Virus genome (UHGV): UHGV-0212541
Reading direction: 5' to 3' (one strand)
Origin: a virus
DNA: 39,460 nt
Shown: positions 19,653-28,697 of the stretch, one piece after another
How the letters are laid out: each line of letters opens with the position of its first letter
Position numbering within the stretch: position 1 is the first letter of the stretch
Notes under the pieces: model-generated
What the model was told of the DNA's origin: nothing
Database searches by the model: none
Seen by the model: the letters and a program-made list of their open reading frames with translations, nothing else
Made by a program: the position numbers and the translations under genes

Positions 19653-19941
19653 TTAAACTATTTCTATATGCTGGATTTCTAGCTGTTTTTTGTTGCCAAG
19701 TCTTTCCTTCAATCTCGATATAGTCAAATGTAGGGATAGAAAAAAGAGGCTGCGTCCTAATGACCTTCGCCCCTTCTTCCACACTACCAAAAATAGTCAC
19801 ACTTCTATCAGTGCCAATATCTGTCATGTTTGCCTCTGTTCTTGTTCTTTCTGGTTTTCCTTCAACCCACTCACCGAGATCTGGATCATATTTAGAGTCA
19901 GATGAACGTTTAACAAATATAATTTCATCTGTAAATCTCAT
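19615..19941 (-). CDS. head-tail adaptor / head closure protein
   Basis: about 108 aa, position. Confidence 0.55.
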   Translation of the reverse strand: MRFTDEIIFVKRSSDSKYDPDLGEWVEGKPERTRTEANMTDIGTDRSVTIFGSVEEGAKVIRTQPLFSIPTFDYIEIEGKTWQQKTARNPAYRNSLIVQEVVLDEGTT

Positions 19942-23500: not shown

Positions 23501-25000
23501 TCACTCCCCTGTTTCATCTTTTTTGTTGCTAATTACTTCTTCACCATCTGAATCAAAAATACCAGTCTGCTTTTGCGTTTCTTTATTTACTCGTTTCAAC
23601 TCTGCCTGTACATCTGGAACAAAAGAAGCGAGTCCTAAGATCGTCTCTTGACTGAGTTCAGCTCCAGCATCAACCAAAGATTTCAACTCTTCCAGAATGG
23701 CTTTAGGTAGATTAGGCGTAAATATTACACGTAAGCCTTTCAAATCGGAGTTATCCATTTCAGAAATACTTGATTTTAGGCTAAATAAAAGACGATAACG
23801 CCGCATAAGACCTTTTTTGAATAGCCTTTGCTTTGTTGCCGTCATTTGTTCAAATCCAAATAATTTATATTTCATTGCTTCTCCTGATTGCACTCCGGAA
23901 AAATTGTCATCAGTAAGATCAGGAACCATTGAGATTTCGTGGATATCCTTGCGCACTCTGTCTTTGTATGCTTCTACACCGTTCACATCATATTGTTTGT
24001 AAATATATCCTGCAGTCACACTTGTTTTATTACCGTTCACATCAGTTCCAGACTCAAGCAAAAGCATATTCGCTTCTTTCTGCTTGATGGCGTCCTCTGT
24101 GGATAGTCCTGCTGCTTCAATATCACCACTAATAACTAGAAGAGCATCGTTTAGATCAGTCATATAGTTGGCGGTATCAGACTGCCCTGCATCGTATAGA
24201 TCAATCAAAGATAGTACATCTTCATACAAGCCCATCCGAAAACGATTAGGAGAATACTCTGTAATAGGTACCTCTTTATATTCATGCGGTTCATCCTGGG
24301 GATTTTTTAACTCAATTGCTGTTAGTGTCGTCTCATCATAAGTGATACTTTTTTCTTTTGTGTATACGATTGGTTGAATGTACTGTTTATCAGCATCCTT
24401 GTTGAATCTTGTCTTAGGATACCGTACAGCCAAAATAGGCTCTCGTTTTACTGTAGTATCATATACAACAAACGTTTCAAATACATTAGCCAAATCAACA
24501 TAATCTGTATCATCTGAATCTCGATAGATAATCTCATAGGCTCTCCCATACTTATCCATATCAAGCCAGAGTTCAGCATTTAACCCATCTATGTCATTAT
24601 TAGTATTAAACTCTTCGATTTCTTTTTGTTGATTTGTGTCCTCAATTTGCACTTTTATAGGATTGCCTGTGTTGTACCCAACATCAAACGTACAAAGAAC
24701 TTTTCCAAAGTTATGTGCTGATCGATGATCCGCTTTTTCCTTTTCTCTACGTCTACGGTTATCCATGATATTTGTATTTCTAGCTTTGTAATAATCATCT
24801 AATACACTTAGCCTTTTTACCTGATATTCATGATGATGTTTTATCATTGCTGCTAAAGTATCTAAATCGTTAAGTAAATCTTCTGCTGAGCTAAACCTAT
24901 AGTGAAGATTGGAATCTACGCTAAACTTTACATAATTTGTGTTCACGTCGTTCGAATAATGTATATCAGCACCGTATTCAAATTCGTTTACCTTATCCAT
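23501..25000 (-). CDS. portal protein (SPP1 gp6-like)
   Basis: 499 aa, between the terminase and the head genes; acidic C-terminus. Confidence 0.9.
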   Translation of the reverse strand: MDKVNEFEYGADIHYSNDVNTNYVKFSVDSNLHYRFSSAEDLLNDLDTLAAMIKHHHEYQVKRLSVLDDYYKARNTNIMDNRRRREKEKADHRSAHNFGKVLCTFDVGYNTGNPIKVQIEDTNQQKEIEEFNTNNDIDGLNAELWLDMDKYGRAYEIIYRDSDDTDYVDLANVFETFVVYDTTVKREPILAVRYPKTRFNKDADKQYIQPIVYTKEKSITYDETTLTAIELKNPQDEPHEYKEVPITEYSPNRFRMGLYEDVLSLIDLYDAGQSDTANYMTDLNDALLVISGDIEAAGLSTEDAIKQKEANMLLLESGTDVNGNKTSVTAGYIYKQYDVNGVEAYKDRVRKDIHEISMVPDLTDDNFSGVQSGEAMKYKLFGFEQMTATKQRLFKKGLMRRYRLLFSLKSSISEMDNSDLKGLRVIFTPNLPKAILEELKSLVDAGAELSQETILGLASFVPDVQAELKRVNKETQKQTGIFDSDGEEVISNKKDETGE

Positions 25001-25012
25001 TTCTCACACTCC

Positions 25013-26320
25013 TTAAAACATTCTTCTGATTTTGTTCCGCTGCTCTTTAGTAACGGTTGATTTCTTTTTGGCCCACATGTCTTCGTTGAAGGCGTATCTT
25101 GTCGCATCAATCGTATGGTTATCTTTATCCTCTAACCTTGGCTTAGGATTTCCATCACGATCTGTTTGATAGTCGATGTTCTCGAATTCCTTAGCAATAT
25201 TCGGAGTGCGTAGTGGATCAATACAAATAAAAGCCAAATCATCTAGCCACTGTTCACCGTACTCAACAGAATCAGGTCCTTTTTTCACGCCTTTTATTCC
25301 TTTCATGCCATGTTCATTAACTAATTCAGCATTACTCTTTGGCTCTGCGCTATCTGAAAATATCTCCTCATTTTGGTAACCTTTAGATTTAGCTTTGTTT
25401 GCAAATTCTCTATTGCTGATCTTCACGCCGTAAATTTCATCGATTGCATAAATACCGTTTTTCTTTTTGTCATAATGCCATCTGACGAACGCTAAAGGAT
25501 CCGTTGCATATCCATAGTCCAAACCGTTGCGGATGTTATCAAAGTTAGAGATCATTTCATCTGTAATAGAACCTTTCTTAACTTGTAGATTATCAAAAGG
25601 TACAACTCCTGACCCCACAGCTTTACCATCATATTCCCACTCAGCCCTTATTGGATTCCTTGCTCTAGTTGCCTCAACTTCTTTCAGAAATTCCTTAGAG
25701 ATGAATGGATTATCCCGATAGGTCGAGTGATGAATAAAAGTGTTGTCTGGTTGAAAAGAAGTCTCATATTTTTTATTTACCCAAGATTGTTTTCTCTTAG
25801 GTGGATTGTAGCTGTAAAAAAACTTATAAAAAAGACCATCATCTAATTCTCCACGTAAAAGGGAGTTCGTGATAGTCGTGACTTCATCTTCTGTTTTAAA
25901 TTCTGCTAATTCTTCAATCCAACCTATAGCAAATGGAAACTTGCTATCTTTTAAAGACTTGATTCGTTCTGGGTTTTGAGCACCACGAAATATCATATAA
26001 TTCCCTCTTGGAAGATAAGTAATTTTAAGTGGTGACTTATTAAACTTAAATAGGCGCGATACTCCCTGCTTCTCAATTGCCCATTTCATTTGTTCGTAAA
26101 TAGATTGCTCAAGTGTATTATCAACATAACGTATACCTACAGCATTCACTGCATATCTCATAAGTAACTGAGTAACGATATGCGCTATATCTGATGATTT
26201 TCCTGAACCCCGGCCACCTTTACAAACTATATTAAGAATGTCTTGATTTAAAGTCGCTCTCCATACTGAATGAAACTTCGGCGGAAGAAATTCAGATAGT
26301 TTTTTAGCCATCATCATCAC
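25013..26320 (-). CDS. terminase large subunit (PBSX XtmB-like)
   Basis: Walker A KGGRGSGKS; nuclease half; overlaps terS. Confidence 0.9.
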   Translation of the reverse strand: MMMMAKKLSEFLPPKFHSVWRATLNQDILNIVCKGGRGSGKSSDIAHIVTQLLMRYAVNAVGIRYVDNTLEQSIYEQMKWAIEKQGVSRLFKFNKSPLKITYLPRGNYMIFRGAQNPERIKSLKDSKFPFAIGWIEELAEFKTEDEVTTITNSLLRGELDDGLFYKFFYSYNPPKRKQSWVNKKYETSFQPDNTFIHHSTYRDNPFISKEFLKEVEATRARNPIRAEWEYDGKAVGSGVVPFDNLQVKKGSITDEMISNFDNIRNGLDYGYATDPLAFVRWHYDKKKNGIYAIDEIYGVKISNREFANKAKSKGYQNEEIFSDSAEPKSNAELVNEHGMKGIKGVKKGPDSVEYGEQWLDDLAFICIDPLRTPNIAKEFENIDYQTDRDGNPKPRLEDKDNHTIDATRYAFNEDMWAKKKSTVTKEQRNKIRRMF

Positions 26321-26759
26321 TACTTATATCATCAATGAAAGTAGGTATTTCAGAAATTTCAACTTTCTGCTTATCTACAAATGCTGCGTTTATTTTATAA
26401 TAATGCTCAAGTGCTTGGTTACGTTCTTTGAAACCTGCTGAATATTCACTCACTTCACGTTCTATGATTTCGTTTGTATAAGGATCTCTCTTAACAACTT
26501 CAAAGCGTTGTGGTTCTCCTTTTGCAATAGAAGCAGTAATAGCCAAAGCTTCTTCCATTGTTAAATGCCTCTTAGTTTGAACTTCTTTTAGCTTCTCTTG
26601 AATGTAGTCGGATACTTTTCCACCTTTTTCCACCAATTTTTCTTGTGCGTTCTTAGCGTAGTTTTCTTTATAGCCAGCTTTCAGTGCTGACTGATAAGCA
26701 TTGCCTGTGATGATGTACTCATCAGCAAAGGCTTGTTGCTTAGGATTCAACTTACTCAT
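26304..26759 (-). CDS. terminase small subunit
   Basis: MSKLNPKQQAFADEYIITGNAYQSALKAGY HTH-like N-terminus typical of TerS. Confidence 0.8.
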   Translation of the reverse strand: MSKLNPKQQAFADEYIITGNAYQSALKAGYKENYAKNAQEKLVEKGGKVSDYIQEKLKEVQTKRHLTMEEALAITASIAKGEPQRFEVVKRDPYTNEIIEREVSEYSAGFKERNQALEHYYKINAAFVDKQKVEISEIPTFIDDISSDDDG

Positions 26760-27009: not shown

Positions 27010-27029
27010 TATGCAGCCTCCTTTACGCA

Positions 27030-27057
27030 AAATAAAAAGACCACTCAAAGAGTGATC
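27030..27057 (-). terminator. intrinsic terminator on the minus strand (GATCACTC-ttt-GAGTGGTC plus TTTTTATTTT) inside the late gene cluster, just upstream of the 74-aa ORF and terS
   Basis: 8-bp stem with 1 mismatch, followed by a U-run on the minus strand. Confidence 0.6.
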
Positions 27058-27059
27058 TC

Positions 27060-27270
27060 ATATGTAATAGCAACCTACACACAGGCGGTTATCCTGTTCC
27101 TCCCTAGGGCTCGCACCACACGAGTTCATACCCCCCTCGGTTGCTTAAAGTCACTGGAGTGGAATCGCACCACTCACGTACTAGTCCTTTCTAGTTTTGT
27201 ACAAGGTCCCGATAGTGCGCCATACGCTTCCTACCTCCACCTTTGCGTCTTCTATTTCCGCCACAGTGAC
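27060..27270 (-). ncRNA. GC-rich (about 55% versus 35% background) structured non-coding island; candidate cis-regulatory RNA or sRNA ending at the 27030-27057 terminator
   Basis: no plausible ORF on either strand; internal hairpin GAGTGG-tgcgatt-CCACTC; repeated GGTGCGA; 6-bp long-range pair GCAACC...GGTTGC; palindrome CCCTAGGG. Confidence 0.4.
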
Positions 27271-27307: not shown

Positions 27308-27346
27308 TTTAGTTATCAGCGAGTGGTCCGCTGAAATAAATTATAG

Positions 27347-27538
27347 GTGGTGAAAAATTTGTACTTTGTTATAAGAGAAGCAACTAATGGCCAATATTAC
27401 TTCGTTATTAAGTCCGATAACAATGAAGTAGTAGCAACTAGCGAAACATACTTGACTAAATATTCCGCTGAACAAACCATTAATTCTATAAAAAACGGAA
27501 TCACCAAAGACTCTCAAGTTATCGATATGACTAAATAA
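27347..27538 (+). CDS. DUF1508 (YegP-like) small protein, 63 aa, opposite orientation to the prophage late genes
   Basis: YFVIREATNGQYYFVIKSDNNEVVATSETYLTKYSAEQTINSIK fits the DUF1508 pattern; start GTG 27347 or TTG 27359 (GGTGGTG RBS). Confidence 0.6.
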   Translation: MVKNLYFVIREATNGQYYFVIKSDNNEVVATSETYLTKYSAEQTINSIKNGITKDSQVIDMTK

Positions 27539-27944
27539 GACGACTAACTTCATTTGCTAGGGAGTTCATTTCAGCTGCTTTTTCTACCAAAGCAGTTGAG
27601 ATACTTTCTAGCTTTTCTGATTTAACAGAATTAAATACTGGCGTCTTGATACTAATCGATACATCTTGACGAGGATCAGGACTCGTTGCTCTATTTTTTT
27701 GCACCACTGATCTGTACTTTTCTACTGAATGATACTCAATTACTTGTTCTAAATGTTTTTTGTACTCTTTACATACAGCTTCTTTTTGGGTCAATTCTAA
27801 ACGTTGTTGCTCAATAATATCAATCAACCGTTCCCGATCCATACCTTGATACTTTATTTGTTCGACTTGGTCACTAGCCTTGTTGAGCAGTTCTTTTAGT
27901 TCAGTCAAATCTAATTTGACAGTTGCTTTGATTTCTTTATCCAT
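27531..27944 (-). CDS. coiled-coil protein, first ORF of the late leader transcript (start MDKEIK)
   Basis: GGAGG RBS before ATG 27944; the ORF-track N-terminal extension is unlikely to be translated. Confidence 0.5.
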   Translation of the reverse strand: MDKEIKATVKLDLTELKELLNKASDQVEQIKYQGMDRERLIDIIEQQRLELTQKEAVCKEYKKHLEQVIEYHSVEKYRSVVQKNRATSPDPRQDVSISIKTPVFNSVKSEKLESISTALVEKAAEMNSLANEVSRLI

Positions 27945-27972
27945 TCGTTTTTCCTCCAATACATAAATTAAT

Positions 27973-28057
27973 AGACAGCAACGGATGATAGATAATAAGA
28001 ACAATTTAGAAGGAGTTAAAATTCACATCCTTATTCTTAATATTTCCGCTGCTGTCT
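27973..28057 (-). other. 13-bp long-range inverted repeat (AGACAGCAACGGA / TCCGCTGCTGTCT; G-U-containing perfect stem in the minus-strand RNA) in the late leader
   Basis: read directly; pairs perfectly only in the minus-strand transcript. Confidence 0.45.
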
Positions 28058-28146
28058 ATCGAAGCTTAATTGTGAAACAATAATAAAACGATGTTCCTTT
28101 TATTATTATTTTGTCTCAGACCTATCACTAATCTTTCGACACTACC

Positions 28147-28202
28147 ATAATATCACGTTAAAACGCTCAAAAACCCTACACTATCCCTACAAAAACCCTA
28201 CA
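28147..28202 (-). promoter_or_regulatory. candidate late promoter: 3x TGTAGGG direct repeats at exact 11-bp phase, then extended -10 TGaTATTAT; 4 nt downstream of the arpU-like stop
   Basis: plus-strand CCCTACA at 28174, 28185, 28196; minus-strand TG+TATTAT at 28147-28155; no -35. Confidence 0.55.
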
Positions 28203-28205
28203 AAA

Positions 28206-28625
28206 TCAACGATACTGAACTAATACGCCTTTTTTGTATGCTTCTGCAAATTCGATCAGCGCGATAGATTTCAGCTTCTCTACATTCTTTTCACCGTATC
28301 CTCGTATCAATTGCCCTATTTCATAATTAGAGTGCTTGTTTACGTCACAGAAGCTGTAGTAGAGTATCTGACGGCTAATCAGACTAAGAGCCATCAAAGC
28401 CGCTAGAATCGCATCTCTCTCCGCTTCTATATCCATCATCTGAATGATCGCGTCTTCTGCCTTATTGCCATGCTTTGGTGCCTTCGGCATATCCGTAATA
28501 ATCGGCGACTTAATATCTATCAAAGAGCGACCTGCCATCCGCTCCAAACGCCGAAAGTTCTTCAGCACATCTCTCGCATTGCATCTTGTCTGTTTGAAAT
28601 CTACCTCTCGTAACAATTGCATCAA
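28206..28625 (-). CDS. ArpU-family phage late transcriptional regulator
   Basis: 139 aa; sigma region-4-like HTH C-terminus; N-terminal FKQTRCNARDVLKNFRRLERMAG pattern typical of ArpU-like proteins; last gene before the packaging cluster. Confidence 0.7.
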   Translation of the reverse strand: MMQLLREVDFKQTRCNARDVLKNFRRLERMAGRSLIDIKSPIITDMPKAPKHGNKAEDAIIQMMDIEAERDAILAALMALSLISRQILYYSFCDVNKHSNYEIGQLIRGYGEKNVEKLKSIALIEFAEAYKKGVLVQYR

Positions 28626-28697
28626 GTCAAACCGCTCCTTTATGTGATATAATAAACTTGTCTGTTTTATTATATTAGTCGGAGCGATCCGGCTTTT

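Follow-up and report, generated by a model that had tools for sequence, protein, structure and literature searches.

Is the cluster of short direct repeats that lies immediately downstream of the arpU gene in the virus genome UHGV-0212541 the recognition site of the ArpU protein, and does it form part of a promoter for the late genes? We addressed this question computationally in the window, by which we mean the whole stretch of 39,460 nt that was analysed, with the element in question occupying positions 28,147 to 28,202 on the minus strand. Our answer is that the element is very probably an ArpU-dependent late promoter of an Enterococcus prophage, in which ArpU binds three TGTAGGG heptamers adjacent to an extended -10 element; both DNA and protein searches assign this box to prophages of Enterococcus, namely those of the E. 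faecium / durans / hirae group. Read directly on the minus strand, the order is TGA-ttt-TGTAGGG-tttt-TGTAGGG-atag-TGTAGGG-18 nt-TGATATTAT. The stop codon TGA of arpU (28208-28206) is followed by ttt, the promoter-distal repeat 1 (28202-28196), tttt, repeat 2 (28191-28185), atag, and the promoter-proximal repeat 3 (28180-28174); repeat 1 starts at the fourth base past the stop codon, and the heptamers start exactly 11 bp apart. An 18-nt spacer (28173-28156), fixed in length and variable in sequence, separates repeat 3 from the extended -10 element (28155-28147), which consists of a TG (28155-28154), one base, and the hexamer TATTAT (28152-28147), a 5/6 match to TATAAT; repeat 3 thus ends 21 nt upstream of the -10 hexamer. 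The spacer is devoid of a -35 hexamer, the sequences found at 16, 17 and 18 nt upstream of TATTAT being GTTTTT, GGTTTT and GGGTTT, respectively. Since the promoter has no -35 element, the failure of a consensus promoter scan to call the ArpU box is uninformative rather than negative. Accordingly, every detail of the layout that the initial annotation of this DNA had described, namely, three TGTAGGG repeats on an 11-bp phase with an extended -10 and no -35 just past the arpU stop codon, was confirmed on the minus strand.

A single TGTAGGG is an ordinary occurrence in this DNA, with four copies in the window vs 1.97 expected, and the only copy outside the box is a lone one at 19729 on the plus strand. 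A tandem pair at the 11-bp spacing is expected only 0.01 times in the window, and a chance origin of the repeats can therefore be excluded. When up to two mismatches were allowed, two overlapping 11-bp-spaced pairs occurred solely at the ArpU box, and with three mismatches no second heptamer cluster rose above background in the window. The search of this genome for further TGTAGGG clusters, which the initial annotation had suggested, thus returned none besides the ArpU box, and the window has a single such box.

The gene that ends at this stop codon, arpU (28206..28625, minus strand; TIGR01637, phrog_248), encodes a late-gene transcriptional regulator of 139 amino acids (aa) if translation starts at the TTG at 28625, or of 138 aa if it starts at the ATG at 28622. 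Residues 5-135 of the 139 match TIGR01637 (phage_arpU) with 131.2 bits, vs a cutoff of 43.1, and the protein matches phrog_248 ('transcriptional activator') with an E-value of 1.8e-40. It is a clear member of the ArpU family, and is encoded upstream of terS, terL and the portal gene on the same strand. In an AlphaFold model of the protein (predicted local distance difference test score, pLDDT, 79), the C-terminal part forms a helical domain, and the neighbours of the model found by structure search in the PDB are almost exclusively sigma region 4 (6onu_H, 3hug, 1ku3), on which this domain superimposes with a root-mean-square deviation of about 1.6-2.2 A over 57-67 residues and a Foldseek probability of 0.97-0.99. 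The best PDB match at the sequence level (hmmsearch) is likewise a sigma-4 domain, that of SigL, and is marginal (E = 0.4). Sigma region 4 is the domain that binds the -35 element. On the model, then, the C-terminal part of ArpU is a predicted sigma-region-4-like helix-turn-helix domain. The sigma-like part extends only from about residue 55 to 130, corresponding to regions 3.2-4, and the N-terminal 50 residues are modelled as two short helices and a low-confidence linker. A Pfam search of ArpU returned no matches at all, including none to Sigma70_r2. We considered whether ArpU could be a complete sigma factor and rejected this, because region 2 is absent according to Pfam, the model and the structure search. 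The conserved TGnTAnnAT of the -10 element fits the host sigma-A.

Across loci, the heptamer changes with the presumed recognition helix of ArpU in at least seven classes. The helix GYGEKNVEKLKSxAL (EKNVEKLK) goes with TGTAGGG, the helix GYSERS[IV]QRMKSEAL (ERSIQRMK) with TTGGCGG, and the helix GYSVRTIEDYKATAL (VRTIEDYK) with (T)ATGTGG. The repeat layout follows arpU in every enterococcal ArpU locus that was examined, and ArpU-like proteins of Enterococcus, Streptococcus, Aerococcaceae and Atopostipes are accompanied by other repeats, again on an 11-bp phase; in some distant ArpU-like loci the first repeat overlaps the stop codon. Chimeric proteins separate the contributions of the two ends of ArpU. 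In the loci L094-L096, 92 of the first 93 residues are identical to those of the window ArpU, while only 21 of the 46 residues 94-139 are, and the heptamer is TTGGCGG. Two other chimeras carry TGTAGGG: L093, with 76/93 identities in residues 1-93 and 42/46 in residues 94-139, and L106, with 52/93 and 31/46, respectively. As judged from these alignments, the heptamer type follows the C-terminal 46 residues of ArpU, not the N-terminal 93. This result is in agreement with the literature, in which specificity has been shown for homologues to reside in the regulator's C-terminal region. At the DNA level, the window and L094 are near-identical up to about codon 93 and again from TGATATTAT onward; in between, they diverge over about 190 bp, a stretch that takes in the codons of the C-terminal part, the heptamers and the whole 18-nt spacer. 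In L094-L096 the C-terminal 46 residues, the heptamers and the spacer are of the phiFL2A type. The recognition helix and the binding site have therefore been exchanged as one cassette. This exchangeable cassette of about 190 bp comprises the last ~46 arpU codons, the three heptamers and the 18-nt spacer, so that a recognition helix stays in physical linkage with the site it binds. The loci L095 and L096 at first appeared to be exceptions to the layout; the full box is present in both, displaced behind one inserted open reading frame (ORF).

The direct repeats could in principle serve another DNA transaction, as a terminase pac/cos site or as replication iterons, or be a product of chance or slippage, and phased direct repeats near terS are indeed typical of some pac sites and iterons. 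However, at least 20 different first genes occur after the same ArpU box and leader in related phages, and the repeats covary with the C-terminal domain of ArpU, not with the freely exchanged packaging genes; on this comparison the repeats appear to travel with ArpU rather than with the packaging genes. In addition, in vitro binding of ArpU to homologous repeats has been shown (PMC3753634), and the expectation for a tandem pair given above speaks against chance. We therefore rejected the pac site and the iterons, as the repeats follow ArpU and not the downstream genes, and regard this whole group of explanations as hardly credible.

The initial annotation had further held that, as far as its author knew, a site of this kind had yet to be characterised in the family. 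This is wrong, since the site of phage phiFL2A, whose ArpU is 66% identical to that of the window, was characterised in 2013 (Quiles-Puchalt et al. 2013, NAR 41:7260; PMC3753634). In phiFL2A, three 7-nt direct repeats lie directly after arpU, their replacement abolishes ArpU-dependent expression of a terS-blaZ fusion, binding of ArpU in electrophoretic mobility shift assays is lost once two or more repeats are mutated, and deletion and complementation of arpU demonstrated that the protein is needed for late-gene transcription and phage particle production (PMC3753634). Repeats have also been shown to be necessary and bound by the regulator for the phi29/80alpha and phi55 boxes (PMC3753634) and for the phi13 box (PMC13123087). 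In the phiFL2A sequence we read TAA-ttt-TGGCGG-tttt-TTGGCGG-aaag-TTGGCGG-18 nt-TGCTAATAT. The two sites thus share the genus, the ArpU family, three 7-nt repeats spaced by 11 bp and beginning 3 nt past the stop codon, an 18-nt spacer followed by TGnTAnnAT, and a leader that opens with the same ..TCGAAAG.. motif. On the other hand, they differ in the heptamer and the helix (TTGGCGG with ERSIQRMK in phiFL2A, TGTAGGG with EKNVEKLK in the window), and in the leader, which in phiFL2A is ~800 bp long and contains a tRNA-Arg gene, and in which its authors put the start 118 bp upstream of terS. A literature search for the exact TGTAGGG box found no report. The TGTAGGG box is a new specificity of the kind of site demonstrated in 2013, in the same protein family and genus.

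For the comparison among close relatives, we used the 80 viral contigs that encode an ArpU 96-100% identical to that of the window and belong to the TGTAGGG class. No variation is seen throughout this set in the heptamers, the TG or the -10 hexamer, save for rare changes of the last base in repeat 3, whereas the stop codon (TGA/TAA), the last base of the second linker, five positions of the spacer, and position -5 vary. One locus, L076 (IMGVR_UViG_2875034908_000001), has four heptamers (TGTAGGG, TATAGGG, TGTAGGG, TGTAGGG) with the 11-bp phase kept, and the number of repeats is therefore not strictly fixed. Related phages with the same regulator had been named in the initial annotation as a place to look for the repeats; they are present there, with essentially invariant heptamers. 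Taken together, the layout after arpU, the covariation with the C-terminal residues, the invariance in the 80 relatives and the phiFL2A experiments (PMC3753634) strongly support the earlier claim that the repeats are the recognition site of ArpU. The companion claim of an activator-dependent late promoter stands as to function, which is strongly supported by the layout, the invariance and the homology with phiFL2A; that the promoter is located beside the repeats is, in the case of the ArpU family, as yet a predicted feature.

What, then, speaks for a promoter at this very position? In 15 loci, an automated search put the -10 hexamer 21 nt from the proximal heptamer; L008, L101, L105, L108, L109 and L131, as well as the RinA phage 80alpha, gave 20-21 nt after a shift of the register by 1-2 nt by eye or with another hexamer. 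The spacer is 18 nt long in all heptamer classes inspected, and a TGnTAnnAT-type element stands at the same distance in the TTGGCGG class, in other classes and in 80alpha. The staphylococcal regulators RinA (80alpha, phi11; Ferrer et al. 2011, PMC3152322) and LtrC (phi13 P23; PMC13123087) resemble ArpU in that required direct repeats lie at or just past the stop codon of the regulator gene, although they belong to protein families other than ArpU. The core TATTAT-GA-TAGTGT is shared between 80alpha and the window, and the gap between heptamer and hexamer in 80alpha is 20 or 21 nt depending on the register, but there the repeats are only 2 x 7 nt. The phi13 site differs more, having 3.5 x 18 bp repeats inside the coding sequence and about 30 nt to the -10. 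Mutation of the repeat-adjacent -10 abolishes the phi13 P23 promoter (PMC13123087); together with the repeat data for phi13, it follows that the repeat-adjacent layout is functional in the Ltr superfamily. The position of the start was calibrated on the same phage. For TSS23 of phi13, its authors' earlier mapping puts the -10 at -15 to -5 and the repeats at -107 to -42 (PMC13123087), and we placed these coordinates (repeat end at -42, TATA box at -15 to -5) on the phi13 sequence. The calibrated +1 is the G of TATAAT-tgctgt-G, with a homologous G in 80alpha (TATTAT-gatagt-G) and, in the window, the G of TATTAT-ggtagt-G at 28140 on the minus strand, 7 nt past the -10 hexamer. We accordingly predict the window +1 at G28140, which would put repeat 1 at -62 to -56, repeat 2 at -51 to -45, and repeat 3 at -40 to -34.

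Several points weigh against this reading and have to be set beside it. The 5' end of phiFL2A was mapped 118 bp upstream of terS (PMC3753634), which on its sequence is about 640 bp downstream of the repeats, and the RinA-dependent start lies >155 bp from the RinA binding region, a distance that its authors called puzzling; the 80alpha mapping moreover used RNA depleted of 5'-monophosphate ends (PMC3152322). If these published distant 5' ends are true starts, the regulated promoter would be one other than the adjacent -10. For the remaining eight loci of the spacing survey, the automated search returned a different distance or made no call, the distant ArpU-like loci L110-L113 and L128 show no clear repeat box, the structure matches to sigma region 4 carry weak E-values (0.4-2), and what we say of the TGTAGGG heptamer and of its function in the present phage is drawn from homologues and comparison.

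The published ends point to an alternative, that ArpU binds the heptamers while the promoter it regulates is located a long way downstream, shortly before terS, with TGATATTAT being incidental. In its favour, the ends obtained by rapid amplification of cDNA ends (RACE) are 118 bp (phiFL2A), 28 bp (phi55) and 23 bp (phi11, 80alpha) upstream of terS, and the treatment of the 80alpha RNA would have removed 5'-monophosphate ends. However, the phiFL2A end has a conspicuous neighbour. In the phiFL2A record L005 (GQ478084.1), the ATG of terS is at 2786 and the G of the RACE end is at 2668, and a tRNA-Arg gene occupies 2592-2666 (ARAGORN; Rfam tRNA). The RACE end therefore falls 2 nt past the discriminator base of the tRNA-Arg, where a cut by RNase Z would leave a 5' end, and what lies upstream of it is the tRNA itself and no -10-like sequence. 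Because it adjoins the 3' end of the tRNA-Arg, the published 'start' of phiFL2A looks, on the sequence of the record, like an RNase Z processing end and not a primary start, and we infer that one transcript, begun about 640 nt upstream at the promoter beside the repeats, includes the tRNA-Arg. Genes for tRNAs are also present in the equivalent leaders of phiEf11, phiFL1A, phiFL3A and SEsuP-1. Furthermore, a -10 held at a fixed 21 nt from the heptamer across classes and genera, and invariant in close relatives, is unlike an incidental sequence; terS of the window is about 1.4 kb away from the box, and the accessory genes that separate the two are unrelated and vary among phages; and in phi13 the repeat-adjacent -10 is essential (PMC13123087). 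A distant promoter is thus quite improbable in our view. The 21-nt geometry and the tRNA coincidence suggest a resolution of the discrepancy pointed out by the authors themselves, in whose maps the start is hundreds of bp away from the site that is bound. A promoter directly beside the repeats in the ArpU family is our prediction, which agrees with phi13 LtrC (PMC13123087) and disagrees with the phiFL2A RACE end. Text searches of two reports of enterococcal genome-wide 5'-end maps (PMC4408782, PMC7724050) found no discussion of prophage late promoters.

Transcription from this promoter would pass through a strongly structured 5' leader (27945..28139, minus strand), whose end is a mosaic junction immediately ahead of the first late ORF; among 82 loci, homology breaks 230-260 nt past the arpU stop codon, likewise just before the first late ORF. 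The leader folds with -53.6 kcal/mol (z = -4.89), and none of 200 shuffled sequences was as stable. Its predicted RNA fold contains an A/U hairpin (28075-28112, minus strand) and a compound hairpin of 90 nt (27971-28060, minus strand) with a 13-bp outer stem. This stem is kept through G.U, A-U and G-C changes, with double compensatory changes at only two pairs, and since it tolerates such exchanges it fits an RNA structure on the minus strand. In related phages, a GC hairpin GGGAGgaaatCTCCC stands in place of the A/U hairpin, and the following ATCGTTTTA is kept. A search of 27800-28300 against Rfam at a permissive threshold returned only a meaningless snoRNA match (E = 0.33). The leader structure may serve for processing, for attenuation or for stabilisation.

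Farther downstream, ArpU, RinA and LtrC systems have canonical intrinsic terminators in the interval from the repeat-adjacent -10 to terS: GAGGTgaataACCTC-CTCTTTTTT in phiFL2A (L005 2165-2188), GGGTTGGCT..AGCCAATCC-TTTTTT in 80alpha (L137 1537-1565), and CTCTCAC..GTGAGGG-TTTTTATTTTT in phi13 (L138 4089-4118, about +23 to +52). In the locus L010, GAGATCACTC..GAGTGGTCTT-TTTATTTTG precedes terS (L010 2428-2458), and the same terminator is found in the window at 27059-27028 on the minus strand, just before the phrog_1202 gene and terS; it is the first canonical one there, none being present in the proximal leader of the window (28139-27945). Late transcription that begins at the repeat-adjacent -10 must therefore read through these terminators. 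This raises the question whether ArpU is partly or mainly a promoter-specific antiterminator in the manner of lambda Q, which would bind the box and load onto polymerase from the adjacent -10; such a role may coexist with activation. The terminators in the three Ltr families, in L010 and in the window are in line with it, and so are reporter data in which transcription from an upstream Pcad fails to reach the reporter without the regulator (PMC3753634, PMC3152322), which implies a working terminator in that interval; because the repeats start 3 nt past the stop codon, the terminator that blocks Pcad lies downstream of the promoter. In our reading, the beta-flap next to the RNA exit channel would also be a plausible place for a sigma-4-like fold to sit. 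Further resemblances to lambda Q (PR', tR') are a regulator gene just upstream of its site, terminators before the late genes, and one promoter for the late cluster. However, ArpU has no similarity to any Q family and no Q-like fold, the ArpU sites lie upstream of -34 whereas those of Q lie between -35 and -10, and the reporter data would be explained equally well if the late promoter is very strong and the terminator leaks; the lack of a canonical terminator in the proximal leader of the window is a further point against it. Nor does the window have a sigma-dependent pause element past +1. A conserved 'second hexamer', TAnTRT, is found 2 nt past the -10, and we considered it as a Q-type sigma-dependent pause element but rejected this, as on the phi13 calibration it spans -4 to +2 and is for this reason part of the start region. 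A literature search for antitermination by RinA or ArpU found nothing. Altogether we deem antitermination by ArpU unlikely, though it is the strongest of the competing explanations. A broader proposition seems to us slightly less likely still, namely, that in every case within the Ltr superfamily (ArpU, RinA and LtrC) it is the repeat-adjacent -10 that serves as the regulated promoter, the distant 5' ends are processing products, as the phiFL2A end beside the tRNA-Arg and the recurrence of tRNA-like elements in such leaders would suggest, and the regulator also confers read-through of the terminators downstream of that promoter. If true, it would mean Q-like, promoter-specific antitermination by an unrelated fold in phages of Gram-positive bacteria.

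Returning to the ArpU-dependent late promoter, which we prefer, we propose the following mechanism. Several ArpU molecules would bind head to tail, by way of their C-terminal helix-turn-helix, to the three heptamers, whose centres would lie near -59, -48 and -37 and take the place of the missing -35 element. ArpU would then recruit or stabilise the host sigma-A RNA polymerase on the extended -10 TGATATTAT, presumably through contact with the polymerase, and transcription would begin near G28140, cross the structured leader, and continue into the genes for accessory functions, packaging, head, tail and lysis. Such a geometry has a parallel in the class II pho box of PhoB, in which repeats composed of a 7-bp core and a 4-bp linker, 11 bp apart, replace the -35 beside a good -10 and are bound head to tail. 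PhoB, however, is a winged-helix response regulator, whereas ArpU is a sigma-4-like helix-turn-helix phage protein without a receiver domain; we therefore rejected ArpU as an activator of the PhoB/OmpR type, and the likeness is limited to the geometry of the DNA site. In the Lactococcus phage TP901-1, the activator Alt, as described in the papers that cite it (PMC3152322, PMC13123087), binds direct repeats at -76 to -32 of a promoter that opens the late cluster; its repeats are four, imperfect, and reach further upstream, and the likeness extends to that description alone.

Past arpU, the genes on the same strand are, in order, two small ORFs, a noncoding stretch, the phrog_1202 gene, terS (26304-26759; Pfam Terminase_2), terL (25013-26320; Pfam Terminase_3 and Terminase_3C) and the portal gene (23501-25000; Pfam SPP1_portal), all of the latter on the minus strand. 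The first late ORF (27531..27944, minus strand) encodes 137 aa and matches phrog_35027 with an E-value of 2.4e-89. The slot at 27341-27971 and its equivalent in L001-L089 form a mosaic hot spot right after the leader hairpin. In the window this slot holds the 137-aa phrog_35027 ORF and a 70-aa ORF without a family match; elsewhere it holds proteins of ~300 aa or a ParA-like ATPase, and in L093 an rli28-like small RNA with matches to toxin-antitoxin RNAs of the RatA/BsrG type.

Between the accessory ORFs and terS we also noticed an unannotated tRNA-like element (27150-27270, minus strand) with the structure GTCACTG-TGGCGGAAATAGAAGACGC-[68-nt insert]-GAGTGGTGCGATTCCACTC-CAGTGAC. Beside it lie a second stem domain (27069-27145) and then the intrinsic terminator at 27028-27059. 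Constant parts of the element are the acceptor stem, a D-arm resembling that of tRNA-Leu/Ser, and the T-arm, and the region of the anticodon and variable arm is replaced by a hypervariable insert of 0 to about 110 nt, with 37 variants. The motif GTCACTGTGGYGGAA is found in 52 of the 138 loci compared, each time on the strand that carries arpU and the late genes. Among IMG/VR contigs it is present in at least 120; wherever such a contig also carried an ArpU gene, this gene was upstream on the same strand (41/41) and never on the opposite strand. Neither ARAGORN nor Rfam called the element. It is possible that it acts as a processing signal for RNase P/Z, as a tRNA-scaffolded RNA, or as a decoy for tRNA-targeting defences.

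On the other side of arpU, just upstream of the gene, the hairpin AGCCGGATCGCTCCGACT at 28677-28694 is flanked by an A-run and a T-run and would be a terminator on the plus strand only. A near-identical hairpin, followed by ..TTATTATATCA.AA.GGAG.., stands directly after the arpU-like genes of L111 and L112. The hairpin at 28677-28694 may be part of the control region of arpU itself. The searches with arpU also returned records with unexpected host labels, namely, PQ554527.1 ('Acinetobacter phage D2SVT'), OR846730.1 ('Listeria phage LM 4-11-1') and OR848098.1 ('LM 4-14-1'), all with 94-95% DNA identity to this Enterococcus arpU, the Streptomyces angustmyceticus contig NZ_JBFBHQ010000083.1, which encodes a protein 90% identical to the window ArpU, and the 'Escherichia coli'-labelled protein P0037, which is 73% identical to it. 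These five records probably carry mistaken host labels, or else come from contaminated samples.

These results leave the basic picture of 2011-2013 unchanged. The helix-heptamer map, the cassette, the 21-nt geometry, the tRNA coincidence in phiFL2A and the recurrent terminators in the leaders go beyond the literature searched, and all of them come from computational inference. The pairs of helix and heptamer (TGTAGGG, TTGGCGG, TATGTGG and others) offer a small specificity code for the sigma-4-like helix-turn-helix, and, being carried on a swappable cassette of ~190 bp, they would constitute a natural set of orthogonal activators and promoters. For the prophage itself, the box would mark the one point at which all packaging, structural and lysis genes are switched on, and it is therefore a place at which to ask whether the prophage makes particles or transduces DNA in strains of the Enterococcus faecium group.

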